Shown: positions 1 to 14,405 of the stretch, one piece after another
Position numbering within the stretch: the stretch's first letter is position 1
How the letters are laid out: every line of letters begins with the position of its first letter
IMG/VR virus record: IMGVR_UViG_2703718819_000014
Location: 1 to 15,164 of that record
Direction: 5' to 3' (one strand)
Origin: a virus
Taxonomy: Duplodnaviria > Heunggongvirae > Uroviricota > Caudoviricetes
Length of the DNA: 15,164 nucleotides
The notes under the pieces: generated by a model
Seen by the model: only the letters and a program-made list of their open reading frames with translations
Told to the model about the DNA's origin: nothing
Database searches by the model: none
Translations under genes and position numbers: made by a program

Positions 1-1287
1 TCAGCGTCTTGCTCTGTGGGGCATGTATGGGACACTTTCAGCTAACTCCTTATTGAGCAGTTCTATCTGCCCGATATTGTTATCTTTCATCCATGCTCCG
101 TAAACATTGAATACCATCTGAGCGTTTGCGTGCCCCATCTGGTTTGCGATAAAGCTTGGATTCGCTCCTGCGGCCAGTGCCCAGCAGGCATAAGTATGCC
201 TTGACTGATAGGCTTTCCTGTGCCGTAGTCCGGCCCGTCTCAGGGCTGATGCCCATGAATCCCTGATGGAGTCCGCTTTGTAGTGGTAACCGGCTTGCTG
301 GCACTTTTTCACCAGTTGCGGATTAAAGACAAACGTGCATTCATGGCTTACGGTGCGTCCGAACTCCCGCAGTTTGACGTCAATCTGGTATTGAGTGCCA
401 AATCTTGTCATTTCAGCCTGACTTTTCAGGGTTTCAATGGCTGGTTGAACAAGATGAATAACACGATCTGTTCCCGCTTCGGTTTTTGGTAGAGTAAACT
501 CCCCGAGTTTTGTATAATTACGACGGATAGTCATTGTTTTAGCTTTTAAATCAATATCCTCCCAGGCGAGAGATATTAGCTCACCGTGACGGATGCCTGT
601 GTATACTGCTAAAGACCACAGGTTTTTCGTTTGTTGATGGTGGCAAGCATCAATAAAACGAATGAATTCGTCATGCGTGAGCGGATCTGGCTCGGTTCTG
701 GACCTTTTTAATGGTGTCAGGCCGTTAAACGGGTTTGATTCCGTGTAGCCGTTGTCAGCTGCAAATTGAAACATACCTGCAATTGTCGTCATGTAGTAAT
801 TAACTGTAACTACAGATCTCCCCTTAACAGGTGTTGTTTTGCCGTTTGAGAGATTGTGATACCCGGTCAATAAATCTTTCCTGATGAAGAGTAAATCTTC
901 TTTTGTTACAGATGAAGCCAGTCGGCTTTCCCCTATACGAGGCAACATGTTTCTCACCACAGATTGATACCGATTGAATGCGTTACCTCCTATTTCGATT
1001 TTTTTCAGATCCAGCCATTTTTCTGAAAGCGCCTTAATGGTTATCTCCTTTTTTCCCAGACCAAAGTGTTTCAGATTTGGGGACTCAGGAAACTGCGCAG
1101 CGTAGTCGAAATTCCCCATTCTGATTGCAAAACAAACTGAAGTCCTGAGTTCGCCTGCAATCTTCCGGTTTTTGGCTGTGTCAGGAACACCGAGGTTTTC
1201 TCTGACACGTTTGCCGTTATAGTGAAACCATATGCGGAGTGATCCGCCATGGTTTTCAACGCCTGTCGGGTATGATGTGTTACTCAT
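1..1287 (-). CDS. int: Tyrosine-type site-specific recombinase (phage integrase)
   Basis: 428-aa ORF; ATG at 1287-1285 with GGAGG 5 nt upstream; C-terminal region carries the conserved Arg/His/Tyr pattern of lambda-family integrases (RHGE, HxxR, RHTYACW); stop codon sits at the window edge, so attL is not visible. Confidence 0.9.
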   Translation of the reverse strand: MSNTSYPTGVENHGGSLRIWFHYNGKRVRENLGVPDTAKNRKIAGELRTSVCFAIRMGNFDYAAQFPESPNLKHFGLGKKEITIKALSEKWLDLKKIEIGGNAFNRYQSVVRNMLPRIGESRLASSVTKEDLLFIRKDLLTGYHNLSNGKTTPVKGRSVVTVNYYMTTIAGMFQFAADNGYTESNPFNGLTPLKRSRTEPDPLTHDEFIRFIDACHHQQTKNLWSLAVYTGIRHGELISLAWEDIDLKAKTMTIRRNYTKLGEFTLPKTEAGTDRVIHLVQPAIETLKSQAEMTRFGTQYQIDVKLREFGRTVSHECTFVFNPQLVKKCQQAGYHYKADSIRDSWASALRRAGLRHRKAYQSRHTYACWALAAGANPSFIANQMGHANAQMVFNVYGAWMKDNNIGQIELLNKELAESVPYMPHRARR

Positions 1288-1320
1288 TGAACCTCCCAGA
1301 CGTCCAGGAGCATTAACAGG

Positions 1321-1575
1321 TTAACCGGAACTTGCATTTTTGACACCTGGTTGTTTCTGGTTTTCGATCCATCGCATAATTTCTTCGATGTTGTACAGGC
1401 ATTCACTGTAATGCCCTGGATCACCTTCTACAGCGTAATGGCGGTATTCTTTTCCCTGCATCCATGACTTTCTTCTGGCCCGCTCGATGGTGCCAGGCTT
1501 TAGCCCTGTTGATGCAATGAGGACTCTCTCCGTACACCATTTGCTGGGGGTTATCTGATAGATGATTGTCTGCAT
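1321..1575 (-). CDS. xis: Excisionase-like small DNA-binding protein
   Basis: 84-aa ORF immediately upstream of and co-oriented with int (33-bp gap); GAGG RBS; basic, small, with a lambda-Xis-like KDGREY-type segment (QGKEYRHY). Assignment rests mainly on position and size. Confidence 0.6.
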   Translation of the reverse strand: MQTIIYQITPSKWCTERVLIASTGLKPGTIERARRKSWMQGKEYRHYAVEGDPGHYSECLYNIEEIMRWIENQKQPGVKNASSG

Positions 1576-1618
1576 GCCAACCTCATAAAACTTTCATCCA
1601 CGGCAGTGGCACCACACT

Positions 1619-1735
1619 TCAAACATTCGCTTCACATCTTCTGTACAACACGGTGTTGTTTATGCAGCGAACAATTTTTACCGGGTAACCGGCACTGTCG
1701 GTATACAGTTGTCCCTGATTAATCAGAGCGAACAT
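1619..1735 (-). CDS. Hypothetical small protein (38 aa)
   Basis: Internal ATG of track ORF 1619..1858; AGGAG 5 nt upstream of the ATG at 1735; lies just after the stop of the upstream ORF at 1767. No recognisable domain. Confidence 0.3.
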   Translation of the reverse strand: MFALINQGQLYTDSAGYPVKIVRCINNTVLYRRCEANV

Positions 1736-1766
1736 TTTTTCTCCTGCTCTCTGAATAGTGAGAACT

Positions 1767-2150
1767 TCAGAGCCGTATGTTTGTAGCGGGTTCAATGCTG
1801 ATAATTTCTGCTGAGATAAGCATCCCGGCAAGCCAGAGTTCCCCGGACAGGTCTTCATCCTGGCATATCAGTTCGCCAATATTAATGGTGGCCATGATAT
1901 CCGTTTTCCCTGTGCGCTCATCCAGGACTTCTTCATAAGGCAGCGTTGCGTACAGGCTTTCAATAGCGCAATTGATAACATCCAGTCCGGTCAGATTGCC
2001 GCCGACAGTAACTTCGAATGTTTCGCGGTATTCCCATAGTCCGAAAGTTAATCGAACGGTTTGTTTTGCCATGCGTCCGCACGACGTCAGATTCGGGTCA
2101 TAGTTCATTATTTGCGGTTGAGTATTCTGGTTGTTCATCTGATTTTCCAT
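1767..2150 (-). CDS. Hypothetical protein (127 aa), last large gene of the SPFH operon
   Basis: Track ORF 1767..2213; I prefer the ATG at 2150 (MENQMNNQ...) because the GTG at 2213 would overlap the SPFH gene by 35 nt. No recognisable motif. Confidence 0.5.
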   Translation of the reverse strand: MENQMNNQNTQPQIMNYDPNLTSCGRMAKQTVRLTFGLWEYRETFEVTVGGNLTGLDVINCAIESLYATLPYEEVLDERTGKTDIMATINIGELICQDEDLSGELWLAGMLISAEIISIEPATNIRL

Positions 2151-2178
2151 TAACCCGGCGGTTTGCCGGGCGTGTAAG

Positions 2179-3006
2179 TTATTTAATCTGGATAAATGGT
2201 GTATTGGCACCACTGGTCATGTATTGCGGCAGTGTACCGTTCCACTTGTTGATGGCTTCCAGCTCCATGACGCCAGGGTTCTGGCGCAGAGCTTCGCCGC
2301 GTAAACGAATGGCATCGGCTTCTGCCAGGGCTTTTGTTCGAATGGCATCAGCCTGTCCGGCAGCTTCTGCACGCAGCATGTTGGCCTCCGCTTCACGTTG
2401 CTTGACTTCCTGTTCGCGCTGCAGGGTTTTCTGGTTTGCCGTGACTTTGGCGTTAATGCTGTCGATAACGGTTGGCGGGTATTCCGGTTTACCTACATAA
2501 GAGAGGCTCATTACCTGAACGCCGATGGGGGTCATCTCTTCCTGAATGTCTTTAAGTGCGGCATCCAGTAGTTCAGACTTGCCGCCGTCGATAAATTTGT
2601 CGGTGGTCATTTTGCTGGCCAGTCGATTGAGTGCGTCGGCGATCTTCTGGCGCAGGTCAGTGGCGGTAATGTCATCCACGCCTTTGCGGTAGGTCTGAAA
2701 CACCGTGGTAACTTTGGATGGATCAACTTTGTAGGCAACACCGATGTGATAGCCGATGGTTGTGCCGTCACTCATCTGGAAGCTGAACGGCTCATCGTAG
2801 GTCTTCATTTGTTTGAAGGTTGGGAAGATGTAAACTTCAGTATTCCAGCCAGTCCAGTAGCGACCAACACCGACCACCTCACCGACGCCTTTATCGTCGC
2901 CCAGTTTATTTACTTTGATGCCAACATTACCGGGTTCAACGCGATCGCAGCCGACAAGGCCAATGGTCGGCAGAACAATGGCTAAAGCAAAAATAATTTT
3001 TTTCAT
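2179..3006 (-). CDS. SPFH/band-7 (HflK/C, flotillin-like) domain lipoprotein
   Basis: 275-aa ORF; N-terminal signal peptide with lipobox (MKKIIFALAIVLPTIGLVGC); central region of SPFH type; C-terminal Ala/Glu/Arg-rich coiled-coil (QREQEVKQREAEANMLRAEAAGQADAIRTKALAEADAIRLRGEA); AAGGA RBS 6 nt upstream; ATG overlaps the stop of the upstream ORF (ATGA). Confidence 0.8.
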   Translation of the reverse strand: MKKIIFALAIVLPTIGLVGCDRVEPGNVGIKVNKLGDDKGVGEVVGVGRYWTGWNTEVYIFPTFKQMKTYDEPFSFQMSDGTTIGYHIGVAYKVDPSKVTTVFQTYRKGVDDITATDLRQKIADALNRLASKMTTDKFIDGGKSELLDAALKDIQEEMTPIGVQVMSLSYVGKPEYPPTVIDSINAKVTANQKTLQREQEVKQREAEANMLRAEAAGQADAIRTKALAEADAIRLRGEALRQNPGVMELEAINKWNGTLPQYMTSGANTPFIQIK

Positions 3007-3191
3007 TTTTTATCCTTAGTGAAAGAAAGACCCTTGTAAATGGCATAAATGCAGGGCGGGGTCAGAAACGCCAGTGCAAAGCCAGAAGTAACTGCTATCG
3101 TATCCTTCATGGATATAAGGAACGGAACGAGTAATCCGTAAATGCATGCGATAATTGCCAGTAAAATTACTATTGTGAAATACAGTCTCAT
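3003..3191 (-). CDS. Small two-helix membrane protein (62 aa), SPFH partner
   Basis: Two hydrophobic segments (FTIVILLAIIACIYGLLVPFLI and AVTSGFALAFLTPPCIYAIY); stop overlaps the SPFH start codon, implying translational coupling. RBS is weak and the start is uncertain. Confidence 0.5.
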   Translation of the reverse strand: MRLYFTIVILLAIIACIYGLLVPFLISMKDTIAVTSGFALAFLTPPCIYAIYKGLSFTKDKK

Positions 3192-3335
3192 TGGTATGTG
3201 GTATCCCGATATTTTTAACTGACAGACAGCGCAATAAAGAGAATAATGATTTCTGTTATTGTCAGTACTGTGGCAAGGATTAAAAGCAGTTTTACTCTGC
3301 TTAATTCACGGTTGTTTTTCATATAAATGGTTAGT

Positions 3336-3360
3336 AAAAAACGGAAGAATTATATTCTTC
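3336..3360 (-). terminator. Intrinsic terminator ending the 3-ORF cargo cassette
   Basis: On the minus strand: GAAGAAT / 3-nt loop / ATTCTTC hairpin followed by CGTTTTTT, 16 nt after the stop of ORF 3376..3948. AT-rich stem, so moderate strength. Confidence 0.5.
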
Positions 3361-3375
3361 TTAATATTTAATGTG

Positions 3376-3948
3376 TCACTGGCCTTCTGGCATACCATGA
3401 GTATTCAGGTCGTTAATCATTTCATCCAGAAGGAGTTCAAGCCCTTCTCGCCCCATGTCTGAAACAATGAAACCTTTATCTGGGTATGTAATGAGCATTT
3501 TCTGATAAAGAAACAGCGCTCTACCCATTCCTTCTGCCTCGCCGTATTTTTGAATTAAATTCCATTCAATATACTGCTGTAAGGCAAACCGAATGGGGCC
3601 GGGATATATCGTCATAACCCCATGCTTCCCGTTATATATTACGGCGCGATCTGTTGTTCCGTGTTCATTCGGGACATCAATTGTGCCGTTCTTGTCTTCT
3701 TCTTCGTTGATGAATGTCGTCACATACAACCATCGCCACTGGGCAACCTTCATCTCAACCGGAAGTTTTCCCAGTAATCCTGCTTCGTCAGCTTGCGCGA
3801 GACACTGAAGGATACGTAAACCTCGCACATTAGGAGTATCGAATTCTCCAGCATCCAGACGGCGTATGGCGTCGTGATAATCAATAGTCATACTGCCTGT
3901 TTGTATACCATTGGCTGTTGCTTCAGCCTGGAATTCAGCGTATTGCAT
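3376..3948 (-). CDS. Hypothetical protein (190 aa)
   Basis: ORF with ATG at 3948, 5 nt after the stop of the upstream 60-aa ORF (RBS inside that ORF); followed by a terminator. No motif I can name. Confidence 0.6.
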   Translation of the reverse strand: MQYAEFQAEATANGIQTGSMTIDYHDAIRRLDAGEFDTPNVRGLRILQCLAQADEAGLLGKLPVEMKVAQWRWLYVTTFINEEEDKNGTIDVPNEHGTTDRAVIYNGKHGVMTIYPGPIRFALQQYIEWNLIQKYGEAEGMGRALFLYQKMLITYPDKGFIVSDMGREGLELLLDEMINDLNTHGMPEGQ

Positions 3949-3953
3949 GAAAT

Positions 3954-4136
3954 TTATTCCTCATCTTCATCTGCTGGTGCAATAACGTCATATCCTGCCT
4001 TTTCTGCAATAAACAGGAATGTTGAAAGATTTCCTACAAATTCATCGTCATGAACATGACGAATTAATATTACTTTCCCGTTTTTGATGGTCAGCAATAC
4101 TCTGGTTTGTTCGTGTTCTGCTGTTTTCTGATGCAT
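3954..4136 (-). CDS. Hypothetical small protein (60 aa) with acidic C-terminus
   Basis: ATG at 4136 with GGGAG 7 nt upstream; C-terminus ...APADEDEE; tightly coupled to the 190-aa ORF downstream. Confidence 0.5.
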   Translation of the reverse strand: MHQKTAEHEQTRVLLTIKNGKVILIRHVHDDEFVGNLSTFLFIAEKAGYDVIAPADEDEE

Positions 4137-4540
4137 TATTATCTCCCGTATGCTTTACGCAGAAACAAGCAGGCAATATGCATGTAATTTTCACCGTGTT
4201 GTGCAATAAGACAGGCTGTTTTGTGTGATGCCTTATGTTTTATAAAAGTCATAATAAAGCCTCCAGTGGATTAAGTGTGTGATAATCCCCGGCTATTAAG
4301 CCGTAATATATTATTCGCAGATGACTTGTTTTATTTAACTGGATAGTTCTGTTTCGGCTGCTGCTTCAGCATAGCAACGTGCAAATTCAAGAACTTCATC
4401 ACCTGTTCTTTTTATTGCATCGTTGTCTTACATTTGTAATACGACAACTGCGCATAATAAATCATGGATATTGTTTGCAAAGGAATCCGGTGCCAGGCAT
4501 AAGCCTTCATACTTATCATGGATATTGCCAGTCATTGTTG

Positions 4541-5233
4541 CTACTCCTTTGCTTCTGATTTTCCCGTTAACAACCACACCAGGTCACAATTAAGCGCACT
4601 GGCCAGTGGTACTATCTGATCAGCAGGAACTTCACAGATGCCGCATTCCCAGTCGTTTATGGGGTCACTATAGGTATGAATCATGCGGGCAAGATCAGAT
4701 TCGGTTAATCCCAGTTTTGTACGGGCGCTTTTGATGCGTGCGCCAATACTTTCCACATGGACTTCAGGCACATTTACGCGAATAACTGACTCGCTGTTTT
4801 TTTCACTCAGCAGAGAAAGCGGATCGCATCCCAGGACGTTTGCCAGGGGGATAAGCATGCTGATGGTTGGCTCGTACTCTCCACTCTCCCATTGCAGAAT
4901 AATCTCTTCGTCAAGATCGAGTAGTCTGGCTAGTTCGGTAGTCGTCAAGCCGCAGGCTTCACGTTTTGTGCGTATGCAGGCTATCTTGTTGCCTGAGCGA
5001 ATAGAATGTTGTTGTTTTGTCGATGCGATCGCTAAAGCATATTCATGAGTAAATTCCAGCACATCAAACCCAACCTCTTTTAATCGCGTATCATCCAGGA
5101 GGTTGAAGGTGCGAACAGCACTGAGCAGGTTTGCGATGGTTAATGCAAAAGAATCGAGGTCTAAATCATCACATAAAACCTTGTTGTAAGTATTGAGGCT
5201 ACATGTTTTTGGTGTTGTTTGTAAGGCTTCCAT
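4541..5233 (-). CDS. Tandem-HTH (two XRE-type helix-turn-helix domains) DNA-binding protein
   Basis: Two consecutive XRE-like HTH segments (...GLTTTELARLLDLDEEIILQWESGEYEPTISMLIPLANVLGCDP... and ...GLTESDLARMIHTYSDPINDWECGICEVPADQIVPLASALNCDLVWLL...) after an ~85-aa N-terminal region of unknown type. First in-frame codon at 5269 is TTG; the ATG at 5233 is preferred. Directly downstream of and co-oriented with the cI-like gene. Confidence 0.7.
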   Translation of the reverse strand: MEALQTTPKTCSLNTYNKVLCDDLDLDSFALTIANLLSAVRTFNLLDDTRLKEVGFDVLEFTHEYALAIASTKQQHSIRSGNKIACIRTKREACGLTTTELARLLDLDEEIILQWESGEYEPTISMLIPLANVLGCDPLSLLSEKNSESVIRVNVPEVHVESIGARIKSARTKLGLTESDLARMIHTYSDPINDWECGICEVPADQIVPLASALNCDLVWLLTGKSEAKE

Positions 5234-5315
5234 ATCATCACCATGCAATTCTAAGTTGAAGTTAATCAATATATAATTGATGGTGAGATATTATGTGTCA
5301 GGTAAACTAGTGTCA

Positions 5316-5340
5316 ATCAAAAATTGATAAACTTGATTTT
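5316..5340. promoter_or_regulatory. Operator-like palindrome plus an 11-mer shared with the cI/cro intergenic region
   Basis: Perfect 13-bp palindrome ATCAAAAATTGAT (5316-5328), immediately followed by AACTTGATTTT (5330-5340), which recurs exactly at 6108-6118. Lies between the cI stop and the tandem-HTH gene start. Confidence 0.35.
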
Positions 5341-5380
5341 TTTGTAGTGGGTGACAAATAATTTAATTTAAAATCAACAA

Positions 5381-6070
5381 CTAACCAAATCTGTTGATAT
5401 TGAATGGTACAGATGAGATGACTTTTGACTGGATATACAGCAGCGCCATTCCCTCTTTTTCGATGCTCCACGGCTGATAGTTGGGATTGTCTGATAAGAC
5501 CATGATCTTGCTTCCAATTTTTTGAAGTCGTTTGACGTAACATTCGCCATCAAAGCAAAATGCATAAATGCCATCACCGTCAAAATAAGTTACTGTTTTA
5601 TCTAAAAACAGTAAGTCACCTGGGGCGATTGTTGGGGCCATGCTGTCCCCTCTGGCGTTACCGATTTCTATGTTCTTGAATGCTCTGTTACCGACCAGGC
5701 GGCGGGCATATTCAGGATCAAGTTCTATTGAGCGTACTACATCAATTAGATCTCCCCGTACATGAGTTCCGTCGCCGCAGCTGAATTCAACATCCAGCAC
5801 ATTGAACACAACGCTGTCTTCTCTTGTATGGTGTTTTTCAGCTGAAGAGTGTGTCGATGAGGTATCTTCACCCAAAAACCAGGATTGTGGATAACCACTA
5901 ATTACTGATAGTTGTGCAAGTTTATCGCTTCTGGGAAACGTCTTTCCTGTAGTCCAGTATTGTACTGATTGTGCGCTTACACCCAGCTTACGGGCTAGTT
6001 CAGCCTGACTCCAGCCTTTTGTTTTCAGCATCATTGCTATCCGATTTTCTGTGCTTTTTACATTCTTCAT
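5381..6070 (-). CDS. CI-like prophage repressor (HTH + S24 LexA-type autopeptidase)
   Basis: N-terminal XRE HTH (GWSQAELARKLGVSAQSVQYWTTGKTFP); C-terminal S24 signature with Ser in GDSMAPTI and Lys in CYVKRLQK; divergent from a cro-like gene across a 130-bp repeat-rich region. Start chosen at M11 of the track ORF (MKNVK...). Confidence 0.85.
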   Translation of the reverse strand: MKNVKSTENRIAMMLKTKGWSQAELARKLGVSAQSVQYWTTGKTFPRSDKLAQLSVISGYPQSWFLGEDTSSTHSSAEKHHTREDSVVFNVLDVEFSCGDGTHVRGDLIDVVRSIELDPEYARRLVGNRAFKNIEIGNARGDSMAPTIAPGDLLFLDKTVTYFDGDGIYAFCFDGECYVKRLQKIGSKIMVLSDNPNYQPWSIEKEGMALLYIQSKVISSVPFNINRFG

Positions 6071-6100
6071 GGTGAGTTCCTGTCGAGGCTTTATACACAT

Positions 6101-6202
6101 AAATATTAACTTGATTTTAGTGTATTCGATCCTTTTGAAACTTGCATGTTAATTTATTCTTGATGTATTCTTGATTTGTAAAGTTAATGTTGGAGCTGTG
6201 CT
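6101..6202. promoter_or_regulatory. Divergent immunity promoter/operator region (PRM/PR-like)
   Basis: AT-rich intergenic region between divergent repressor genes. Contains tandem direct repeats TATTCTTGAT (6155-6164, 6166-6175), a degenerate copy GTATTCGAT (6122-6130), and AACTTGATTTT (6108-6118); all share a TTGAT core. Individual -35/-10 hexamers were not confidently assigned. Confidence 0.5.
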
Positions 6203-6460
6203 GTGATAAAACTGAATGATTACGACATGTTGCGTAAATTGATTCCTCAAAACGCCATAGCAAGATACATCGGTGTTACGCCACAAGCGGTGAACCTGTG
6301 GTTTTCTAAAAACTCCGTTCCTTCTCGTTTTGTTTTACGGGTGTGTGAGTTAGTTGAATGGAAGGTTACTCCGCATGGGTTAAGACCTGATCTATACCCT
6401 TATCCCGAAGATGGAATTCCTGATTCGTTACGAAAATCAAACGGTATTACCAGAGATTAA
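6203..6460 (+). CDS. Cro/YdaS-like small HTH regulator
   Basis: 85-aa ORF divergent from cI-like gene; GTG start with GGAG 6 nt upstream; HTH segment IARYIGVTPQAVNLWFSKNSVP resembles the Rac YdaS/Cro-type fold. Confidence 0.7.
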   Translation: MIKLNDYDMLRKLIPQNAIARYIGVTPQAVNLWFSKNSVPSRFVLRVCELVEWKVTPHGLRPDLYPYPEDGIPDSLRKSNGITRD

Positions 6461-6541
6461 AGACTGACTGTCACGAGTAGTAACTCACGATGCATACGTT
6501 TTGGCGTGAGTTCTGAAATGTCATCCTCAAGGAGCAATCAG

Positions 6542-7249
6542 ATGAATACCGCAATTTTTACCGATAAAGCATCCATGACCAGCGTTGAAATCGCAGAGCT
6601 GGTGGGCAGCCGCCATGACAAAGTGAAACAATCCATTGAGCGCCTTGCTGAACGAGGGATTATTCAGCTTCCCCCAATGGGGATTTCTGAAAATATCAAT
6701 GGGTTAGGTTTAACTCAAAAAAGTAAGCATTATCTTTTCGAAGGTGAACGAGGCAAGCGCGACAGCATCATTGTTGTCGCACAGCTTTGCCCTGAATTCA
6801 CCGCCCGCCTGGTAGATCGCTGGCGCGAACTGGAAGAACAAATCCGTAAACCAATGAGCCAGATCGAAATGGTTGCTGCAATGGCACTTGAAGCCGTTCG
6901 CCAACAAAGACGTCTTGAGCAGGTGGAAGAGAAAGTCAGCCACGTTACCGAAACAGTCGAGCAAATCAAAAGAGGCACCATACGTGATGGTTATGCAGGT
7001 TACCGTCAGCTGGTGGCGAAAACGGGTATGTCAGATGCGAAATGCCGCAATCTGGTGAACGCATATCAGATCCCTACCGATACCCATGAATTTATGACGC
7101 CGGATGGATTGTTGTCTCGTCGCGCGATTGTTGCAGTAGAACCCTTCATGTCTGCTTTTCATCGAATGATGAGTGAAGCAGAACCACGAGGTGCACGCTG
7201 GTATCACCCGAAAATGGGGCTGTTCCAGGCGCTGGGCTGGCAGGTGTAA
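6542..7249 (+). CDS. Rha-family phage regulatory protein (antirepressor-like), paralog 1
   Basis: AAGGAG 6 nt upstream of ATG at 6542; N-terminal region (MTSVEIAELVGSRHDKVKQSIERLAERGII ... YLFEGERGKRDSIIVVAQL) matches the Rha/ORF6N-type pattern. Confidence 0.7.
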   Translation: MNTAIFTDKASMTSVEIAELVGSRHDKVKQSIERLAERGIIQLPPMGISENINGLGLTQKSKHYLFEGERGKRDSIIVVAQLCPEFTARLVDRWRELEEQIRKPMSQIEMVAAMALEAVRQQRRLEQVEEKVSHVTETVEQIKRGTIRDGYAGYRQLVAKTGMSDAKCRNLVNAYQIPTDTHEFMTPDGLLSRRAIVAVEPFMSAFHRMMSEAEPRGARWYHPKMGLFQALGWQV

Positions 7250-7268
7250 TTATGCTCACAGGTAGCAC

Positions 7269-7448
7269 ATGCAAGTACTCAATCGCTGGTTCCGTGATGG
7301 AAGGGGGCGTCGCGTCCACGTTATACGCTGGGAGCCTGAAACACAGCGCGTTATCTATCTTCGCAAAGACTACCCGCATGAGTGCTTTAGTCCTTTGTGG
7401 AAATTCAGGCGTGATTTTGTTGAGTGTGAAGGAACACCAGCATATTGA
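7269..7448 (+). CDS. Small basic hypothetical protein (59 aa), not in the ORF track
   Basis: ATG at 7269 in a different frame from track ORF 7252..8277; translation MQVLNRWFRDGRGRRVHVIRWEPETQRVIYLRKDYPHECFSPLWKFRRDFVECEGTPAY looks protein-like (balanced composition, Trp/Cys spacing); just below the 60-aa threshold. Confidence 0.4.
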   Translation: MQVLNRWFRDGRGRRVHVIRWEPETQRVIYLRKDYPHECFSPLWKFRRDFVECEGTPAY

Positions 7449-7725
7449 TTCTGCAATTCCGGGACGTTACACTGTTCCGGCACCTTATAAAGCGGGTGCC
7501 GGGCGTGGAAACCCGAAATTCAATATAGAGCACAACCGCGCTCATGCGGTTTTTTCGTGTCATGAGCATCGTTACGCCCAAATTATGGTGGGGCGTGCAG
7601 GGCCAACTTCGGTTGGGCCGGGTTCTATGTTGACCGGTATTTCCACCCCTGTACGTCTCACCACCTATATGGTCGTGGAAAGCCTTGGTGGTGAGTTCAT
7701 TGAATTCAACATAGGGGCTGTCACC

Positions 7726-8277
7726 ATGACTACTCTCCCAACCCAATCTCACCCTGAAATCACGATTATCAATGGTCGCGTTGTCACCACATCTCTTGCA
7801 GTAGCTAATTACTTTACTAAACGGCATGAGCGGGTTTTAGATAGAATTAGAAACCTCGAATGTTCCGCTGAATTTACTGAACACAATTTTGTGTTAAGTG
7901 AATACACCGACGCATCAGGCCGCAAACTCCCTTGTTACCAAATCACCCGCGACGGTTTTGCATTTCTTGCTATGGGTTTCACGGGTAAACGTGCTGCCCG
8001 GTTCAAAGAAGCATACATCAATGCCTTTAACCAGATGGAGAGGTGCTTATCAGGAGTTGGTGCGGCTGATATGCCATCTGTCGCACAAAACGCCAGAGGC
8101 GTATACCTGCATTTGCGAGAAATCCACCAAATCTGGACAAGCCAGCTTTATCCCATGCTTAAGGCTGTTGAATCTCCGCTGGCTAGCAAACTGTACGACC
8201 GTGTAGGTGATGCTGTTTTTGGTGCTGCACTTGTTGATTCCAGACTGAACGGTTCTGACAAGGAGGCGCACCCATGA
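7726..8277 (+). CDS. Rha-family phage regulatory protein, paralog 2
   Basis: Internal ATG of track ORF 7252..8277; from MTTLPTQSHPEITIINGRVVTTSLAVANYFTKRHERVLDRIRNL ... YQITRDGFAFLAMGFTGKRAARFKEAYINAFNQME follows the Rha-domain pattern. The upstream 474 nt of the long ORF lacks coding signals. Confidence 0.7.
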   Translation: MTTLPTQSHPEITIINGRVVTTSLAVANYFTKRHERVLDRIRNLECSAEFTEHNFVLSEYTDASGRKLPCYQITRDGFAFLAMGFTGKRAARFKEAYINAFNQMERCLSGVGAADMPSVAQNARGVYLHLREIHQIWTSQLYPMLKAVESPLASKLYDRVGDAVFGAALVDSRLNGSDKEAHP

Positions 8278-8507
8278 TTCGCCGCGTCGTTAGTTCCCTG
8301 TATCACCGATACAACCACTGCCCCCGTGTGGGGCAGTGGTTCACCACCAGCAACGGTCACGTTCTGCGGGTTTGCCTGGTCAATACAGAAAGCCAGAAGG
8401 TTGTCTGCCAGGTTCAGGGATGTACTCATACCCTGAGTTATCCGCTGGTGGCGTTTCAGTCCGGAAAAATGTTTAAACGCCTGGGAGGTGGCTATGCGTC
8501 CGTCTGA
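8274..8507 (+). CDS. Small Cys-containing hypothetical protein (77 aa)
   Basis: AAGGAGG 7 nt upstream; ATG overlaps the stop of Rha paralog 2 (ATGA); four Cys at positions 16, 34, 45, 50; 3' end overlaps the replication-initiator start. Confidence 0.5.
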   Translation: MIRRVVSSLYHRYNHCPRVGQWFTTSNGHVLRVCLVNTESQKVVCQVQGCTHTLSYPLVAFQSGKMFKRLGGGYASV

Positions 8508-9387
8508 TCTTCTGCTCGATTTTGGACATCCGGTTGCTTATTACCCTGGGCTCGTTAAATACATGGGAAGTCCGCACGCTGTTATTTTCTTTGGTCAGAT
8601 TTTTTACTGGCAGGATAAAGCACATGCAGCGGAAGGCGTACATAAAACGCGTGAAGAGATACAACACGAAACAGGACTTACATTTGAACAACAGGCTGTA
8701 GCGCGTAAGCATCTTGTGTCCAGAGGCATTTTGGTTGAAACCAACAAGCGTCTTGAGCACAAAATGTTCTACCGTATAGATTGTGAGCGCCTTAATGAAA
8801 TTATCAATGAAAACAATCAGTTTTCCCGAAATGGGGAAACCCGTTTTCGGGAAACTGTAAAACCCAATTTCGCGGAGGAGGGAAAGCCTTCACCGCGGGC
8901 ACGGGAAACCCCTCGCCGCGGAGAAGGGAAAACCAATTTCGATCTTACAGAGAATACAACAGAGATTACTTCAGAGAATACTACAGAGAGTAAAAACACT
9001 ATTGGCGCATCCGCTGACGCGTCTGCACCAGCACGTTCTGCCCGACAGGAATATTCACCGGAATTTGAACAGGCCTGGCAGGAATATCCCAAACGTGCTG
9101 GTGGTAATTCCAAGTCAGCTGCTTTCAAAGCCTGGAAAGCCCGTATCAGGGAAGGTGTGACACCCGAAATCATGCTCAACGGTGTGAAACGCTATGCCGC
9201 CTGGGTGCGTGTCTCAGGAAATATCGGTACCCAGTTCGTGAAGCAGGCGTCGACGTTCTTTGGCCCCGATCGGCACTTTGACGAATTCTGGCAACAGCCA
9301 GCAGCCCCCGGAGGTGGGCGGGGCAAAAGCCTCCCAATCTCGGGATTCAGTGAACAGGATTACGGCTCAACGAACTTCAACTGGTGA
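8494..9387 (+). CDS. Replication initiator / replisome-organiser protein (lambda O / Rac YdaU-like)
   Basis: GGGAGG 5 nt upstream of ATG 8494; coding sequence contains iteron-like repeats; basic C-terminal segment EFEQAWQEYPKRAGGNSKSAAFKAWKARIREGV; immediately upstream of the DnaC-like and DnaB-like genes. Confidence 0.65.
   Translation: MRPSDLLLDFGHPVAYYPGLVKYMGSPHAVIFFGQIFYWQDKAHAAEGVHKTREEIQHETGLTFEQQAVARKHLVSRGILVETNKRLEHKMFYRIDCERLNEIINENNQFSRNGETRFRETVKPNFAEEGKPSPRARETPRRGEGKTNFDLTENTTEITSENTTESKNTIGASADASAPARSARQEYSPEFEQAWQEYPKRAGGNSKSAAFKAWKARIREGVTPEIMLNGVKRYAAWVRVSGNIGTQFVKQASTFFGPDRHFDEFWQQPAAPGGGRGKSLPISGFSEQDYGSTNFNW
8833..8992. repeat. ori-like iteron array inside the initiator gene
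   Basis: Five copies of GGGAAA(A)CC-type repeats at about 8833, 8848, 8880, 8903 and 8926, followed by four tandem ~12-bp ACAGAGA(A/T)TAC units (8947-8992). Matches the lambdoid layout of iterons plus an adjacent repetitive tract inside the O gene. Confidence 0.5.
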
Positions 9388-9406
9388 TTTTGTGGGGAGG
9401 GTGAAA

Positions 9407-10297
9407 ATGACTAATTTCCTGAACAAACAACACATGCAACACGACAAAGCGCAGTTACTTAACCGCAAGGCAGACTTGGAAGAGGAGCTGGCATTTGTCC
9501 GTGGCGGAAAGCGTCCGTGGCGCTGTGAGCATTGGGTGCAAAGCACTGAGACGGTGTCCTGCGGGAAACACGGAAAATACACGCGCTATGTGCTGACGGG
9601 CCCGGATGTAAGGGGGAAAGCTGTCAAACGGGTGTCCGGTTGCCTGTCCTGCCTCAGTGAGGAGCTGGACCGCGTGTATGACGAATTACGCGCCCTGAAG
9701 GTTCGTGAATTACTCGATCAGGCCGGTATTGCCCGCCGGTTCCAGGACTGTGAGTTTGAGAATTATCAGGCGGTGAATACTGACGCACAGAAAAACCTTG
9801 AAGCCTGTCAGCGCTATGCCGCTTCCTGGAAGAAATGTCTCGCTGCAGGCACCAGCATGGTCATGATTGGCAATTGTGGTACCGGGAAAAATCACCTGGC
9901 TGTATCAATGGCAAAAAATATTATTCGCCACCACCAGGCAACCATAGAAATCACGGATGTGATGCGGCTTACCCGTGCGGTGAAAAATACCTGGCGCCAC
10001 AACTCTGAGCGCACTGACGATGAAGTGATTAATCATTTTGCATCGCTGGATCTGCTTATCATCGATGAGGTTGGTGTGCAGTTCGGTACGCCTGCGGAGA
10101 TAACCATCCTGCAGGAAATCATAAATGCACGTTACGAAAGCGTTTTACCGACAATTTTGATCAGCAACCTGACGTTTGAACAGCTTAAGGAATCCATTGG
10201 TGAACGGATTGTGGATCGCGTTACTGATGGTGGGCGTAACTGCCTGGTGTTTGGTTGGGAAAGCTACCGTGCGCATATCAGAGGTGTGGCAGCATGA
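9407..10297 (+). CDS. DnaC/IstB-like AAA+ helicase loader with N-terminal Cys cluster
   Basis: GGAGG 6 nt upstream of ATG 9407; Walker A GNCGTGKNHLA, Walker B LLIIDEVG; N-terminal CEHW...SCGKHG...GCLSC zinc-finger-like cluster. Confidence 0.85.
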   Translation: MTNFLNKQHMQHDKAQLLNRKADLEEELAFVRGGKRPWRCEHWVQSTETVSCGKHGKYTRYVLTGPDVRGKAVKRVSGCLSCLSEELDRVYDELRALKVRELLDQAGIARRFQDCEFENYQAVNTDAQKNLEACQRYAASWKKCLAAGTSMVMIGNCGTGKNHLAVSMAKNIIRHHQATIEITDVMRLTRAVKNTWRHNSERTDDEVINHFASLDLLIIDEVGVQFGTPAEITILQEIINARYESVLPTILISNLTFEQLKESIGERIVDRVTDGGRNCLVFGWESYRAHIRGVAA

Positions 10298-11694
10298 CAA
10301 ACCCGACAAATCCGGCGTGGCGTAATGATGACCTGGAAGGAGCTGTCATTGGCGCGTTTTTTCTGCGAGGGGCTGATCCGGAAGTGATGGATATTCTGGC
10401 CACACTTCCGGCGGATGTCTTTTTCGTGCGTCAGTACAGGGATATTTACGCGGGAATTTGCAGACAGGCCCGTGTATCCGGCGTCATTGACCCCGTACTG
10501 CTGTGCAATGAGATGCCGGAACTTGCCCCGGTGATTACCGACACCGGACGCAAAACCTGGGTGAAGTCTTCACTGGAGCACTATGTTGCAGCGCTGCGGC
10601 GCAATGCCGCACTGCGCGATGCAGAAAAAACACTGACCGAAGCATTACAGAATTTACGTGATGCGCATACCTGTGAAGCAGCTGAGGATGCCCTGAAGGA
10701 TGCGCAGAACATGATGACCTCACTGTCGACCGGAAAGGGCGTCATTCAGCCGGTTCACATTGATGATGTTCTTCCGGAAGTGGTCGACCGTGTTGAATGC
10801 CGCAATCAGGGACTGGAGAAATCCAGGGCACTGATGACCGGTATTGATGAACTGGACGCAAAAACGGGCGGTATGGAGCCAGGCGACCTGGTATTCATTG
10901 CGGCCCGTCCTTCGATGGGGAAAACCGAACTTGCGCTGGATATCATCGACAAGGTGACTGAGCAGGGGCATGGCGTGCTTCTGTTCACCATGGAGATGGC
11001 GAACATCCAGATTGGTGAACGTATGGTGTCTGCTGCCGGTGGAATGCCGGTATCCCGTCTTAAGTCTGTTGCCCGTTTTGAAGATGAAGACTGGGCGCGT
11101 TTCTCGCAGGGCGTGGGACGAATGACGGGGCGTAATATCTGGATGGTGGACCAGGCAAACCTGACCATTGATGAGATATGTGCAACCACGAGGCACCACC
11201 GGATGAAACACCCGGAAACGGCGCTGGTGGTGGTCGATTACCTCGGCCTGATTAAAACCCGCAGCACGGGGCGTCACGACCTTGCTGTGGGGGAAATCTC
11301 AAAGGGACTTAAAAGCCTGGCAAAATCCGGCGGTTTTCCGCTGATTGCTCTGAGCCAGCTCTCCCGTGGCGTGGAATCCAGACCCAATAAACGCCCCATG
11401 AACTCGGACCTGAAAAACTCAGGGGAAATAGAGGCGGATGCAGACATCATTCTGATGCTTTACAGGGATGAGGTGTACAACCCGGAGACACAGGCGAGAG
11501 GCATAGCTGAAATCAACATCACGAAACAGCGTAATGGCACGCTGGGTACCATTTACCGGCGTTTTCATAACGGGCATTTTCTGCCTGTGGATCAGGAGAG
11601 TGCCCGGGTTCTTTCCACTCCCATGACGCCGGGCAATCCGCGCAGATACAGCAATAACCGCATGTCGGGTAGTAAAACGGAGCGTTTATTTTGA
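10294..11694 (+). CDS. DnaB-like replicative DNA helicase
   Basis: 466 aa; ATG overlaps the DnaC-like stop (ATGA); RecA-fold C-terminal domain with Walker A ARPSMGKTELAL and Walker B-like ALVVVDYLGL. Confidence 0.85.
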   Translation: MTNPTNPAWRNDDLEGAVIGAFFLRGADPEVMDILATLPADVFFVRQYRDIYAGICRQARVSGVIDPVLLCNEMPELAPVITDTGRKTWVKSSLEHYVAALRRNAALRDAEKTLTEALQNLRDAHTCEAAEDALKDAQNMMTSLSTGKGVIQPVHIDDVLPEVVDRVECRNQGLEKSRALMTGIDELDAKTGGMEPGDLVFIAARPSMGKTELALDIIDKVTEQGHGVLLFTMEMANIQIGERMVSAAGGMPVSRLKSVARFEDEDWARFSQGVGRMTGRNIWMVDQANLTIDEICATTRHHRMKHPETALVVVDYLGLIKTRSTGRHDLAVGEISKGLKSLAKSGGFPLIALSQLSRGVESRPNKRPMNSDLKNSGEIEADADIILMLYRDEVYNPETQARGIAEINITKQRNGTLGTIYRRFHNGHFLPVDQESARVLSTPMTPGNPRRYSNNRMSGSKTERLF

Positions 11695-11948
11695 ACAACA
11701 GAACAACCACTGTTTCACCGGAACAACTTCGTCGGCAGGCGCAGGAGATGCTTCGTTGTGCTGAACAGATGGAAAAAACGAGCGTGGCAAAAGATACGCT
11801 CCGCAAGCAGCTTACTCCGGCGCTTCGTGATCTGCTGCAGGCAAAACACCGCACACAAAAGGCGGTGGATGAGCTGGTGGATTGCGTGGCGGAACTGGAA
11901 GGCCAGGTAAGCCAGTTTGAAACGCTGGTGAAAGAGTTTACTGCGTGA
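11691..11948 (+). CDS. Hypothetical small coiled-coil protein (85 aa)
   Basis: ORF overlapping the helicase stop; first codon TTG; helical heptad-like composition. Start and reality uncertain. Confidence 0.4.
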   Translation: MNNRTTTVSPEQLRRQAQEMLRCAEQMEKTSVAKDTLRKQLTPALRDLLQAKHRTQKAVDELVDCVAELEGQVSQFETLVKEFTA

Positions 11949-11999
11949 TGGCTGAATTTTTTCTCCTGCGTTCATGCAATACCGTTCGCTGAGGTGACC

Positions 12000-12989
12000 G
12001 TGAGAGCACTGCTGACCCCTGAAATTGCCCCGCGTATGGGGATCGTCTTGTTCAGACCCGGTTCAGAGCTGATGCCCCTGTTTATGCAGGGGCGTGTCCT
12101 GCTGGAGCCTGAGCCGGAACGTTATTCATCTTTTGCCAGTGGTGCCGTTCCGGCAGCATCACAACCGCTGGCGGATGATCCTGCCGTTCGGGCCGTGTTC
12201 CGCCATGAGGCGGTGATCCGTCGTGCTGGTGGCGTGGAATGCCTTGAGAGCTGGTTACTTCGTGAAAAAGGCTGCCAGTGGCCTCATTCCGGATGGCACA
12301 GCGAGAACATGACCACAATGCGACACGCGCCGGGCGCAATCCGTCTGTGCTGGCACTGCGATAACCTGCTTCGCGATCAGTTCACGGAACGTCTGGAGTC
12401 AATGGCAACGGATAACTGTGCCCGCTGGGTGTTGTCCGTAGTCCGTCGTGATCTCGGTTTTGATGACAGTCACGTTGTGACAATGCCTGAACTGTGCTGG
12501 TGGCTGGTTCGTAATGACCTGGCGGATGCCTTACCGGAAAGTGCAGCCCGTAAGGCCCTGAGATTACCGAAGCCTGTTTTGCCGTCTGTCACCCGGGAGA
12601 GTGACCTTGTGCCTTCGGTTCCTGCCACCAGCATTATCCAGGATAAAGCGAAAAAGGTGCTGGCGCTGAAAGTGGATCCGGAGTCGCCGGAGTCTTTTAT
12701 GTTACGCCCCAAACGTCGTCGCTGGGTTAATGAAAAGTACACGCGCTGGGTTAAGACGCAGCCGTGTGCATGTTGTGGTAAGCCAGCCGACGATCCGCAT
12801 CACCTGATTGGTCATGGTCAGGGTGGAATGGGTACAAAAGCGCATGACCTTTTTGTGTTGCCTTTGTGCAGAAAACACCATGACGAACTGCATGCGGATA
12901 CCGTGGCATTTGAAGAGAAGTATGGTTCCCAACTGGAGCTGATATTTCGTTTTATCGATCGCGCGCTGGCGATTGGTGTGCTGTCCTGA
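12000..12989 (+). CDS. DUF968-like (Qin YdfU-type) protein with C-terminal Cys/His motif
   Basis: C-terminal CACCGKPADDPHHLIGHGQGGMGTKAHDLFVLPLCRKHHDELH resembles the DUF968 / HNH-like metal-binding pattern found beside Q in Qin-type prophages. Start uncertain: GTG at 11994 or 12000 (GAGG 5 nt upstream), or ATG at 12036. Confidence 0.6.
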   Translation: MRALLTPEIAPRMGIVLFRPGSELMPLFMQGRVLLEPEPERYSSFASGAVPAASQPLADDPAVRAVFRHEAVIRRAGGVECLESWLLREKGCQWPHSGWHSENMTTMRHAPGAIRLCWHCDNLLRDQFTERLESMATDNCARWVLSVVRRDLGFDDSHVVTMPELCWWLVRNDLADALPESAARKALRLPKPVLPSVTRESDLVPSVPATSIIQDKAKKVLALKVDPESPESFMLRPKRRRWVNEKYTRWVKTQPCACCGKPADDPHHLIGHGQGGMGTKAHDLFVLPLCRKHHDELHADTVAFEEKYGSQLELIFRFIDRALAIGVLS

Positions 12990-13006
12990 TTTTGTGGAGA
13001 AAGTTG

Positions 13007-13399
13007 ATGCGTGATATTCAGATGGTTCTCGAACGCTGGGGGGCATGGGCGGCAAGTGGTAACGCCGGGGTGGACTATTCTCCGATAGCTGCTGGATTTA
13101 AAGGCCTTTTACCATCCACCGCTAAACCTCGCCCGGCCTGCAGCGATGATGACGGCCTTATCATCGAAAACTGCCTTACGCGCCTGAAGAAGAAAAAACC
13201 GGACGAGTATTCGCTGCTGGTAGCTCATTATCTGCTGCGCATATCAAAAAGGCAGATTGCCAGAACAAGAAAGAAGAGCGAAAAGGCAATACGAATTGAG
13301 ATGCAGATTGCTGAAGGATTTATTGACGGATGTCTGTCGATGCTGGGTGTAAGGCTGGAGATGGACGACTGGCTGCCCAAAAAAGTAAAAAATGATTAG
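13007..13399 (+). CDS. Late-gene antiterminator, Q family (phage-82/P22 gp23 type)
   Basis: 130 aa; N-terminus MRDIQMVLERWGAWAA and ...AAGFKGL...C.DDD...RLKKK.PDEY.LL..YY match the Phage_antitermQ-type pattern; GGAG RBS. Coordinates taken from the ORF track. Confidence 0.75.
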   Translation: MRDIQMVLERWGAWAASGNAGVDYSPIAAGFKGLLPSTAKPRPACSDDDGLIIENCLTRLKKKKPDEYSLLVAHYLLRISKRQIARTRKKSEKAIRIEMQIAEGFIDGCLSMLGVRLEMDDWLPKKVKND

Positions 13400-13459
13400 C
13401 GCGGTCCGCAAAAAGTATGTCAGTATGTTAAGAGTGGTTACTACGCCACACAACTTAAA

Positions 13460-13481
13460 CCCGCCGCCTGGCGGGTTTTTT
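13460..13481 (+). terminator. Intrinsic terminator about 60 nt downstream of Q
   Basis: CCCGCC / GCCT / GGCGGG hairpin followed by TTTTTT; preceded by a CA-rich unstructured tract CGCCACACAACTTAAA. Confidence 0.7.
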
Positions 13482-13600
13482 ATGACTGAAATCGCATCAG
13501 TACAGTAAACGTGCTGGTGGTGAATACCTGTCTTTCAGCTTGCTGGCTTTTTAGACAAGAGTTATTGGTATGTCACGTTAACCGGAAAAGGGAAAAAGAC

Positions 13601-13798
13601 ATGCTAAAACAGCAGGATATGACAGAAACCGCCAGAGTGGTGTTTAATGAATTAAGCGTCACCTACCCGGCGACAGTCGGGGAGATTGCGCAGAATACTT
13701 ACCTTTCACGCGAACGCTGCCAGTTAATACTGACCCAGCTGGTTATGGCGGGTCTGGCAGACTATCAGTTCGGTTGTTACAGACGCCTTCCGCAGTGA
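13601..13798 (+). CDS. Small putative winged-helix DNA-binding protein (65 aa)
   Basis: Internal ATG of track ORF 13511..13798 with AGGGA upstream; size and pattern (VGEIAQNTYLSRERCQLILTQLVMAGL) resemble small PapI/FaeA-type regulators; followed directly by a terminator. Weak assignment. Confidence 0.45.
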   Translation: MLKQQDMTETARVVFNELSVTYPATVGEIAQNTYLSRERCQLILTQLVMAGLADYQFGCYRRLPQ

Positions 13799-13812
13799 AG
13801 GCTTTTTTATTT
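13785..13812 (+). terminator. Intrinsic terminator
   Basis: GCCTTC / CGCAGT / GAAGGC hairpin overlapping the stop of the small ORF, followed by TTTTTTATTT. Confidence 0.65.
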
Positions 13813-13922
13813 GTGGTAAATGGGCGGCTGGTGGGTGTGGTGGTTGTTGCTTTCCCGTTGCTGAAAAAGAAAGCATCAGGCGATTAGCAGGGTATCAGTT
13901 ACCCGTTGAAATTTTTAAATAC

Positions 13923-14341: not shown

Positions 14342-14368
14342 GGCCCATCCGCTCCGGTGGGCCTTTTT
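14342..14368 (+). terminator. Intrinsic terminator
   Basis: GGCCCA / 10-nt loop / TGGGCC hairpin followed by TTTTTA. Confidence 0.55.
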
Positions 14369-14405
14369 ACTGCAGAAAACAGGTTCCCCGTTAAATGCTA
14401 TGTTG

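Follow-up and report, generated by a model that had tools for sequence, protein, structure and literature searches.

A mobile phage cassette for a predicted periplasm-facing SPFH lipoprotein and its small inner-membrane partner

The window analysed in this work (the whole stretch of 15,164 nucleotides (nt) given as positions 1 to 15,164 of virus record IMGVR_UViG_2703718819_000014, Caudoviricetes) represents the left arm of a phiP27-type Shiga toxin (Stx) prophage. Two overlapping genes on its minus strand encode a membrane protein of 62 amino acids (aa) and an SPFH/band-7 lipoprotein of 275 aa. Judged from their sequences, these genes very probably form a mobile cassette for an SPFH scaffold that is held in the inner membrane and faces the periplasm, together with a dedicated two-helix partner. 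Furthermore, we hypothesize, with a confidence only slightly better than even, that the two proteins build a 1:1 cage-and-anchor complex resembling HflK/C, which would act in early lytic growth on a conserved component of the host inner membrane. Both protein families were already present in PHROGs, and RefSeq names the products 'SPFH domain-containing protein' and 'hypothetical protein'. L05 of phiP27 and the pairs gp11/gp12 of P88 and gp28/gp29 of KpCHEMY26 belong to the same two families (phrog_200 and phrog_1130), which were catalogued with neither a function nor a link between them. The two-gene unit, the partner family with its natural fusions, the predicted inner-membrane and periplasmic topology, the mobile accessory nature and the very strong purifying selection are new. 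The role of the SPFH protein is called unclear in a published phage genome paper (PMC13239085), and our searches of the accessible literature library found no experimental study of a phage SPFH protein.

The SPFH lipoprotein and its membrane partner

The partner gene (3003-3191, minus strand) and the SPFH gene (2179-3006, minus strand) share an ATGA stop/start overlap at 3003-3006, which was read directly from the sequence, and an AAGGA Shine-Dalgarno sequence precedes the second gene. The 275-aa product matches Pfam Band_7 (PF01145) over residues 22-208 (1.2e-30; 107.3 bits against a cutoff of 23.6) and the PHROGs 'lipoprotein' family phrog_200 (1e-112). Its N-terminus, MKKIIFALAIVLPTIGLVGC-D, is a lipoprotein signal peptide (residues 1-19) with the lipobox LVGC20 and an Asp at position +2 (Asp21). 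The SPFH domain (20-175) is followed by a helix of 65 residues (178-242) and a C-terminal segment, in which W255 is invariant and G257 and P260 occur in at least 90% of the sequences. An AlphaFold2 (AF2) model made from an alignment of 100 sequences reached a predicted local distance difference test score (pLDDT) of 91.9 and consists of the signal helix, the SPFH domain at 20-175, the single helix at 178-242, a short helix and an extended tail.

A Foldseek comparison of this model with the PDB matched only cage-forming SPFH proteins. HflC and HflK (7vhq) lead with 6e-14 and 8e-14, and prohibitin, erlin, stomatin, flotillin, major vault protein and QmcA come next, all at about 17% identity. The Foldseek probability was 1.00 for HflK/C, prohibitin, erlin, stomatin, flotillin and the vault protein, and the E-values of the top matches (HflC/HflK, prohibitin, erlin, stomatin) span 1e-14 to 1e-11. 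HflK was also the only significant match in a sequence search of the PDB (1.4e-3). The protein had been called HflC-like in the preliminary description of this DNA. That wording stands for the fold, since HflC and HflK are the top fold matches and share the predicted membrane side, but it fails at the level of the family. Orthology was rejected because the protein scores far under the NCBIfam cutoffs, with 22.8 bits against 134.4 for HflC (TIGR01932) and 19.6 against 159.4 for HflK (TIGR01933). Moreover, the locus has no pair of side-by-side SPFH paralogues of the HflK/HflC type; there is one SPFH gene, and its neighbour encodes the 62-aa hairpin protein. By profile and model, the mature part of the 275-aa protein makes up a whole SPFH protomer, which belongs to a separate subfamily and is no orthologue of HflK or HflC. 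The label 'serine protease' found in older records was rejected because the Pfam search detected no protease domain; it is probably a legacy of the SPFH-NfeD protease operons.

Of 120 close homologues, 106 have an acidic residue at +2 behind the lipobox (Asp in 101 and Glu in 5), despite 64 versions of the signal peptide. Lipoproteins of Enterobacterales that carry Asp at +2, a Lol-avoidance signal, are classically retained in the inner membrane. In a clade of close SPFH homologues from P1-like plasmids of about 110 kb (proteins P0108-P0113, P0117 and P0120), the lipobox Cys is replaced by Tyr (…GIIGYDRVEPG…), and Trp, Tyr or Phe stands at this position in single variants from Klebsiella. The lipid anchor has thus apparently been swapped repeatedly for an uncleaved N-in signal anchor. 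A simple pattern search found a lipobox in 109 of 150 representatives, and many of the others have an N-terminal hydrophobic segment. These features point to a predicted anchor in the inner membrane with the SPFH domain in the periplasm, which is the same orientation as that of HflK/C, known to extend into the periplasm and to enclose the periplasmic domains of FtsH (PMC12048511).

The 62-aa protein matches the PHROGs 'membrane protein' family phrog_1130 (7e-23) and has two hydrophobic helices according to hydropathy. Because both of its termini are positively charged and its loop is neutral or acidic, an N-in/C-in arrangement is predicted. P23 and S27 are invariant in the family alignment and G37 is present in at least 90% of the sequences; the conserved P23-x-L-I-S27 motif would lie at the periplasmic end of helix 1. 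The protein had no match in Pfam (noise only, with E up to 10), in the PDB or to NfeD proteins, including YbbJ of 8z5g. A holin identity was considered for its similar shape and rejected, as the best match was Holin_SPP1 at E 0.17 and the gene is far from the lysis genes.

The linkage of the two genes was counted over 86 fetched loci. The partner gene directly abuts the SPFH gene in 82 of them, and two others have it 18 and 223 nt upstream, so it is adjacent in 84 by tblastn; the remaining two (P88 and RCS47) carry a divergent but alignable partner of the same family. The genes also overlap in P88, Fraca, KpCHEMY26 and Vibrio phage CKB-S1. Partner homologues adjoin SPFH genes in the virulent phages KpCHEMY26 and KpS8 and lie directly upstream of them in CKB-S1 (9e-13) and Stenotrophomonas phage Piffle (1e-7), and a Burkholderia phage has a probable partner homologue next to its SPFH gene.

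In about 20 of the best 150 representative clusters, the SPFH protein has an N-terminal extension of 55-100 residues, which is the small protein fused in frame to the lipoprotein. The profile of the stand-alone partner matches 13 of these extended representatives in their N-terminal part at E <=0.01, and the motif P-x-[LMF]-[ILVFM]-S is found at positions 22-34 in 15 of the 20, compared with none of the other 130. Thus, on profile and motif, natural partner-SPFH fusions are present in at least 15 of the 150 representative clusters. The order of segments in the fusions is helix 1, loop, helix 2, basic linker, signal peptide with lipobox and SPFH domain, and this order places the SPFH domain outside the cytoplasm. 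An AF2 model of one fusion shows three membrane helices (pLDDT 80-89) followed by the SPFH fold (>95). Two contigs that encode fusions resemble phage early regions. A homology search with the partner profile returned only stand-alone enterobacterial partners and no fusions, which reflects a word-index limit, and viral contigs searched with the fused protein P0159 gave no relatives. Gene fusion combined with translational coupling argues for a stoichiometric physical complex of lipoprotein and partner.

In the 344-aa protein P0170, a partner domain (residues 289-328, E 3.6e-5) with an MKK-like start before it comes after the SPFH domain. Loss of a stop codon probably created this arrangement, by letting translation continue into the first gene of another cassette in tandem. 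If P0170 were a single chain, its topology would be inverted.

Mobility and selection

Several Stx2a/Stx2d phages match positions 1600-3350 of the window with 100% identity, and phiP27 matches them with 94%. The mitomycin-inducible sister prophage ASU11 has the gene order int, xis, DUF4222, L04 (DUF5406), L06, L07. It contains neither the SPFH gene nor the small membrane gene and is otherwise syntenic in its backbone. In BLASTN, the homology of ASU11 to the window ends at 2108 and restarts at 3348, which leaves 2109-3347 (minus strand) as the accessory segment, comprising the cassette and its flanks. Because the same backbone in ASU11 has neither gene of the pair and the homology breaks at these two points, the pair, together with a hairpin and possibly a 35-aa open reading frame (ORF), is on this comparison an accessory insertion into a common backbone. 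The preliminary description had listed four co-directional ORFs (62, 275, 127 and 38 aa) between xis and the immunity region and had treated them as one operon. The ORFs were confirmed on the minus strand, at the location given, between xis (1321-1575) and a cI-like repressor gene (5381-6100); the observation goes far beyond chance. Also confirmed were the SPFH/band-7 lipoprotein, on which profile search and predicted structure (AF2, Foldseek) agree, and the translationally coupled two-helix partner. Of the proposed operon, only the first two genes hold together as a unit. Those for the 127-aa and 38-aa products are part of the backbone, since they are kept in ASU11 and are absent beside the pair elsewhere; neither DUF5406 nor DUF4222, the families of these two ORFs, adjoins the pair in P88, Fraca, RCS47, KpCHEMY26 or KpS8.

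A GC-rich stem-loop (2153-2171, minus strand; 7 bp with a 5-nt loop) lies 8 nt past the SPFH stop codon and forms the 3' boundary of the cassette. RNAfold gave -15.1 kcal/mol for the 60 nt past this stop codon, with the hairpin as the main element. The hairpin occurs at the same place in phiP27, Fraca and P88, and a true hairpin with a T-run terminator was found only in KpCHEMY26. A canonical intrinsic terminator after the SPFH gene of the window was rejected, because the hairpin has no U-tract and a terminator scan made no call. At the other end of the cassette, a candidate ORF of 35 aa (3215-3322, minus strand), whose status as a gene is uncertain, carries one hydrophobic helix (MKNNRELSRVKLLLILATVLTITEIIILFIALSVS) and falls within the segment absent from ASU11. 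The ORF is kept in phiP27, with changes that are synonymous in 2 cases and mostly conservative in the other 6. Pfam and PHROGs profile searches gave no family match for it, and no clear ribosome-binding site was seen. In KpCHEMY26, gp27 is an unrelated one-helix gene directly upstream of the pair.

The cassette was observed on unrelated phage backbones. In the P2-like phage P88, it is gp11/gp12 of the early operon; in the HK97-like Fraca, the pair adjoins xis; and in the P1-like RCS47, it consists of an unannotated 78-aa ORF and gp078. In the virulent N4-like phage KpCHEMY26, the overlapping gp28 and gp29 lie among genes for an RNA polymerase subunit and dUTPase, and the virulent rV5-like KpS8 has the pair as gp225 and gp223. 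Close homologues with 70-80% identity are present in virulent N4-like phages. Relatives of the SPFH protein were detected by tblastn in 717 of 50,697 phage records, with hosts including Staphylococcus, Pseudomonas, Erwinia, Klebsiella, Burkholderia and Caulobacter. Among 5426 complete E. coli genomes, 536 carry the cassette, which occupies 419 places on chromosomes and 199 on plasmids, and a HMMER scan of 1.84 billion cluster representatives returned 206 clusters at E <=1e-30. By its presence or absence in syntenic genomes and its occurrence on unrelated backbones, the cassette is a mobile accessory module. The 78-aa partner gene of RCS47 (L004:3776-4012, minus strand) is unannotated in the RefSeq record. 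In P1-like phages, the cassette fills the slot between ban and upl/plp, which we take to be occupied by tciABC in P1 itself.

The mature body of the SPFH protein is under extreme purifying selection, with ratios of nonsynonymous to synonymous substitution (dN/dS) of 0.012-0.037 over synonymous divergences (dS) from 0.4 to saturation. Compared with the window, the mature body of the P88 protein is 98% identical (dS 0.40, dN/dS 0.018), that of RCS47 97% (dS 1.07, dN/dS 0.012) and that of Fraca 86% (dS 2.4, dN/dS 0.037). Divergence is seen in the signal peptide (42-58% identity), in the C-terminal 13 residues of the SPFH protein (46%) and in the partner (20-31% in P88 and RCS47). Relative to P88 (locus L002) and RCS47 (locus L004), the cassette of the window is a mosaic, in which positions 2179-2217 and 2968-3191 are divergent and the mature body is 96-100% identical in protein. 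The type of C-terminal tail (SGANTPFIQIK or SNTAVPFVPVK) tracks the type of partner in four close cases. This association of tail and partner could represent co-variation or merely common recombination breakpoints. The constraint on the SPFH body is unusual for an accessory phage gene and agrees with dense interfaces for self-assembly, with a host target that is conserved, or with the two together.

Function of the SPFH complex

We hypothesize that the product of the first gene would be a two-helix membrane hairpin with both ends in the cytoplasm, and that translational coupling would supply partner and lipoprotein in roughly equal amounts. The lipoprotein would be kept in the inner membrane through Asp at +2 and would expose its SPFH domain, the 65-residue wall helix and a cap segment to the periplasm. 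The 1:1 complex may then oligomerise into a domed ring of the HflK/C type on the periplasmic face of the inner membrane. In this ring the small protein would serve as a transmembrane 'fence' or anchor, an element that HflK/C and the fused or signal-anchored relatives carry in the same polypeptide, and its role would be functionally comparable to that of the helices by which NfeD partners are embedded in the membrane. Expressed from the early leftward lytic transcript, the complex would most likely capture or insulate a conserved component of the host inner membrane and serve lytic development generally, which would explain its carriage by virulent phages.

The early expression assumed here has two supports. 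No promoter-like site was found on the minus strand upstream of the cassette (3192-3375) in a weak consensus scan, which was not enriched over shuffles (8 sites, where 11 were expected). On this strand, the closest candidates are located at 4481-4454, in the AT-rich gap before a 60-aa gene, and at 5316-5288, where a strong promoter-like site (TTGACA-17-TAATAT) lies just upstream of the 242-aa gene. Because no promoter-like site is near and the cassette is found in early or middle gene blocks of virulent phages, its expression with the early leftward lytic transcript would be the most economical reading.

Among known systems, HflK/HflC (7vhq, 7wi3, 9cz2) share with the phage protein, as predicted here, an N-terminal inner-membrane anchor and a periplasmic SPFH domain with a long wall helix and a cap segment. 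The phage protein differs from them in its low identity (about 17%), in having a lipid anchor instead of a transmembrane helix and in being encoded by one SPFH gene rather than two paralogues; moreover, the phage system is mobile and its partner is a hairpin of 62 aa. The co-transcription of an SPFH gene with the gene of a membrane partner is also known from the SPFH-NfeD operons (QmcA-YbbJ 8z5g, YuaF-FloT of B. subtilis and PH1510-PH1511 of Pyrococcus). Tan and colleagues, reportedly in Structure in 2024, described a 1:1 cage in which the partner's membrane helices lie between SPFH protomers. The 62-aa partner, however, has no NfeD/OB-fold domain, is too short for one and has no NfeD sequence match. 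QmcA itself faces the cytoplasm, whereas the phage protein is predicted to be periplasmic, and its fold match is weaker (5e-8, rank 36).

Several points weigh against the cage-and-anchor hypothesis. Oligomerisation, binding of the small protein and contact with a host protein are all steps that we infer, and a lipid anchor combined with a 62-aa hairpin is unlike the construction of any solved SPFH cage. The strong divergence of the partner and of the last 13 SPFH residues could mean that the partner is loosely constrained ballast and not a precise subunit. The weakness of the promoter scan leaves room for expression in the lysogen. Furthermore, distant phages have a different or helix-free upstream gene (Erwinia phage Tian, crAss-like cr106_1, and the one-helix MbpV of Kayvirus), so the partner is not universal to phage SPFH proteins.

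As for the host component, FtsH is the leading named candidate, given the topology in common, the ranking of the fold matches and the conservation, although we regard this identification as tentative and, taken alone, rather improbable. We are equally doubtful about the bolder proposal that phages of many families use a periplasmic SPFH cage of their own to capture a conserved machine of the host inner membrane, for which FtsH or the HflK/C-FtsH holoenzyme would be the leading candidate, and thereby reprogram membrane protein quality control during infection. If this were true, the cassette would be a host-takeover device that is widespread yet hitherto unrecognised, and also a minimal SPFH cage of natural origin, made of a lipoprotein and a separate anchor. 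High-resolution views of SPFH cages (HflK/C, prohibitin, stomatin, flotillin, erlin) are recent, and their effect on the enclosed clients is debated. A compact and conserved phage system, found in hundreds of phage genomes and in about one complete E. coli genome in ten, with a separate, sometimes fused anchor and a constrained periplasmic body, may be a tractable model for cage assembly and client choice. The cassette is a candidate for a general phage strategy at the host inner membrane, and for Shiga toxin phages it is an accessory module outside the core lysis-lysogeny switch.

A different function, which we consider unlikely, is superinfection exclusion or another membrane-level defence, in which the complex, placed on the outer face of the inner membrane, would block the entry of incoming phage DNA, like T4 Imm/Sp, P22 SieA, HK97 gp15 and the lipoprotein Ltp. 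The preliminary description had named a module for exclusion or abortive infection as an equal alternative. Early membrane or periplasmic proteins are typical of exclusion genes in temperate and virulent phages. A membrane/periplasmic pair made early and carried as a presence-or-absence accessory cassette would agree with this, and in the Vi01-like phage PhiSH19 the SPFH gene adjoins an annotated superinfection exclusion gene (PMC3220722). Moreover, on a metagenomic phage-like contig, the gene for the fused protein P0178 is two genes away from an upstream gene with Pfam Acb2_Tad1_hairpin (L097:218-520), a family of anti-CBASS/anti-Thoeris sponges, so that the cassette is located there among accessory genes of phage-host warfare. 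However, none of the 62-, 275-, 127- and 38-aa proteins matched a PADLOC-DB 2.0 model at E <=0.01. Lambdoid, P2-like and P1-like carriers share 97-100% protein identity at a dN/dS of 0.01-0.04, and such conservation is unlike that of proteins which have to follow changing targets in phages. A common entry target is improbable for podo-, myo- and siphoviruses of Gram-negative and Gram-positive hosts, whose entry routes are unrelated, and no lysogen promoter was detected, which is weak evidence.

The preliminary description had placed the cassette in the slot of lambda CIII and derived from this position a possible role in the lysis-lysogeny decision. In this scheme, a periplasmic SPFH lipoprotein would join or mimic the HflK/C cage, alter FtsH and thereby the stability of a CII-like regulator, and so substitute functionally for CIII. 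A similar FtsH idea was floated, as a suggestion only, for orf75 of Burkholderia phage CSP3 (PMC10269572). The scheme draws on the predicted location of the protein on the same side of the same membrane as HflK/C (PMC12048511), on HflC/HflK as the best fold matches with HflK as the sole significant PDB sequence match, and on a PHROGs 'CII-like regulator' encoded by the prophage. FtsH is, in addition, universal and conserved and would fit the strong purifying selection. Like CIII, the cassette would belong to an early leftward transcription unit between the immunity region and xis/int. The position argument nevertheless falls, as the cassette is absent from ASU11 and is placed elsewhere in P2-, P1-, HK97-, N4- and rV5-like phages. 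CIII, a small amphipathic peptide of the cytoplasm, acts by competition at the active site of FtsH, whereas the phage SPFH protein is a predicted periplasmic scaffold; the two have no sequence or structural relation, and the cassette is not bound to this position. The family scores given above lie far below the HflC and HflK cutoffs, prohibitin, erlin and stomatin score practically equal to HflC/HflK in fold at about 17% identity for all, and one SPFH gene stands where HflK/HflC would need a pair. No Pfam Lambda_CIII match was found among the nine proteins between xis and the repressor. The published contact of HflK Arg191 with FtsH (PMC12048511) could not be mapped unambiguously because of ambiguous numbering and was not used. 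The virulent N4-like carriers of 70-80% identical homologues never lysogenise. Because virulent carriers have no lysis-lysogeny decision, inducible ASU11 dispenses with the cassette and its map positions vary, no lysogeny-specific role is favoured. These results argue against a lambda-style CIII substitute tied to map position, and we consider the whole scheme distinctly unlikely.

Lower still in probability, and quite improbable, is a function in envelope integrity or lysis timing, in which the cage would corral holins or other phage membrane proteins or would stabilise the energised membrane until lysis. In Staphylococcus Kayvirus, a virulent phage, the gene of the SPFH membrane protein MbpS is directly preceded by the overlapping gene of the small, holin-like membrane protein MbpV, and the two lie between the endolysin gene lysK and the transglycosylase gene tgl (PMC7150955). 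A role in Sec assistance was proposed for this pair, as a proposal only. MbpS resembles the cassette in gene order but is only 22-25% identical and is located in the lysis region, and MbpV, with its one helix, shows no detectable relationship to the 62-aa partner. In crAss-like cr106_1, the SPFH gene is followed by that of a peptidoglycan hydrolase. Two helices, an N-in/C-in arrangement and a basic C-terminus also give the 62-aa partner a superficial likeness to class II holins. On the other hand, the Holin_SPP1 match is not significant, and both in the window and in those proteobacterial phages that were examined the cassette lies well away from the lysis genes, among genes of early functions, replication and nucleotide metabolism. 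A holin-regulator fusion in 10% of clusters would also be unusual.

Activation of Toll-like receptor 2 (TLR2) is a generic property of triacylated lipoproteins. A lysogenic-conversion virulence lipoprotein, expressed from the prophage, sent to the outer membrane or vesicles and acting on the animal host, is extremely improbable: it has a precedent in Pasteurella PM0222, an SPFH lipoprotein of a prophage island reported to signal via TLR1/2 (PMC9872710), and its carrier is a Shiga toxin phage of pathogenic E. coli, but such signalling is generic, Asp at +2 predicts retention in the inner membrane, the alpha-helical transmembrane fusions and the Cys-to-Tyr anchors make sense only there, and the family is widespread in virulent environmental phages.

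Neighbouring genes of the window

All genes from the integrase to the repressor region discussed here are on the minus strand. The integrase (1-1287) and the excisionase gene xis are followed by the 38-aa ORF (1619-1735), which matches Pfam DUF4222 (7e-10; profile positions 2-31 of 53) and contains only the N-terminal 33 residues of that gene. It is the deletion remnant of an 80-aa gene that is intact in ASU11, relative to which 235 bp are absent from the window at this site. The 127-aa ORF (1767-2150) belongs to DUF5406 (Pfam 2e-22; phrog_3409 1e-52), and its PHROG alignment suggests that the true start is the second ATG, at 2138, which would give a protein of 123 aa. Upstream of the cassette are two genes of unknown function (3376-3948 and 3954-4136). 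Searches of the PDB by sequence with the DUF5406 protein and with the 190-aa upstream protein gave no match, and a scan of the window for tRNA genes found none. The 242-aa protein (4541-5269) is encoded directly downstream of the cI-like repressor gene on the same strand and contains two helix-turn-helix (HTH) domains of the HTH_3 family. Its PHROGs match is the 'CII-like regulator' (6e-92), with weak matches to DicA and to the RmrA-type HTH models of PADLOC. On the plus strand, the phiP27 equivalent of 6506-8277 is annotated as two consecutive Ant-type anti-repressor genes. Within this region, a long N-terminal stretch of the 341-aa ORF (7252-8277) has the look of non-coding or misassigned sequence, and the C-terminal part after it is conserved.

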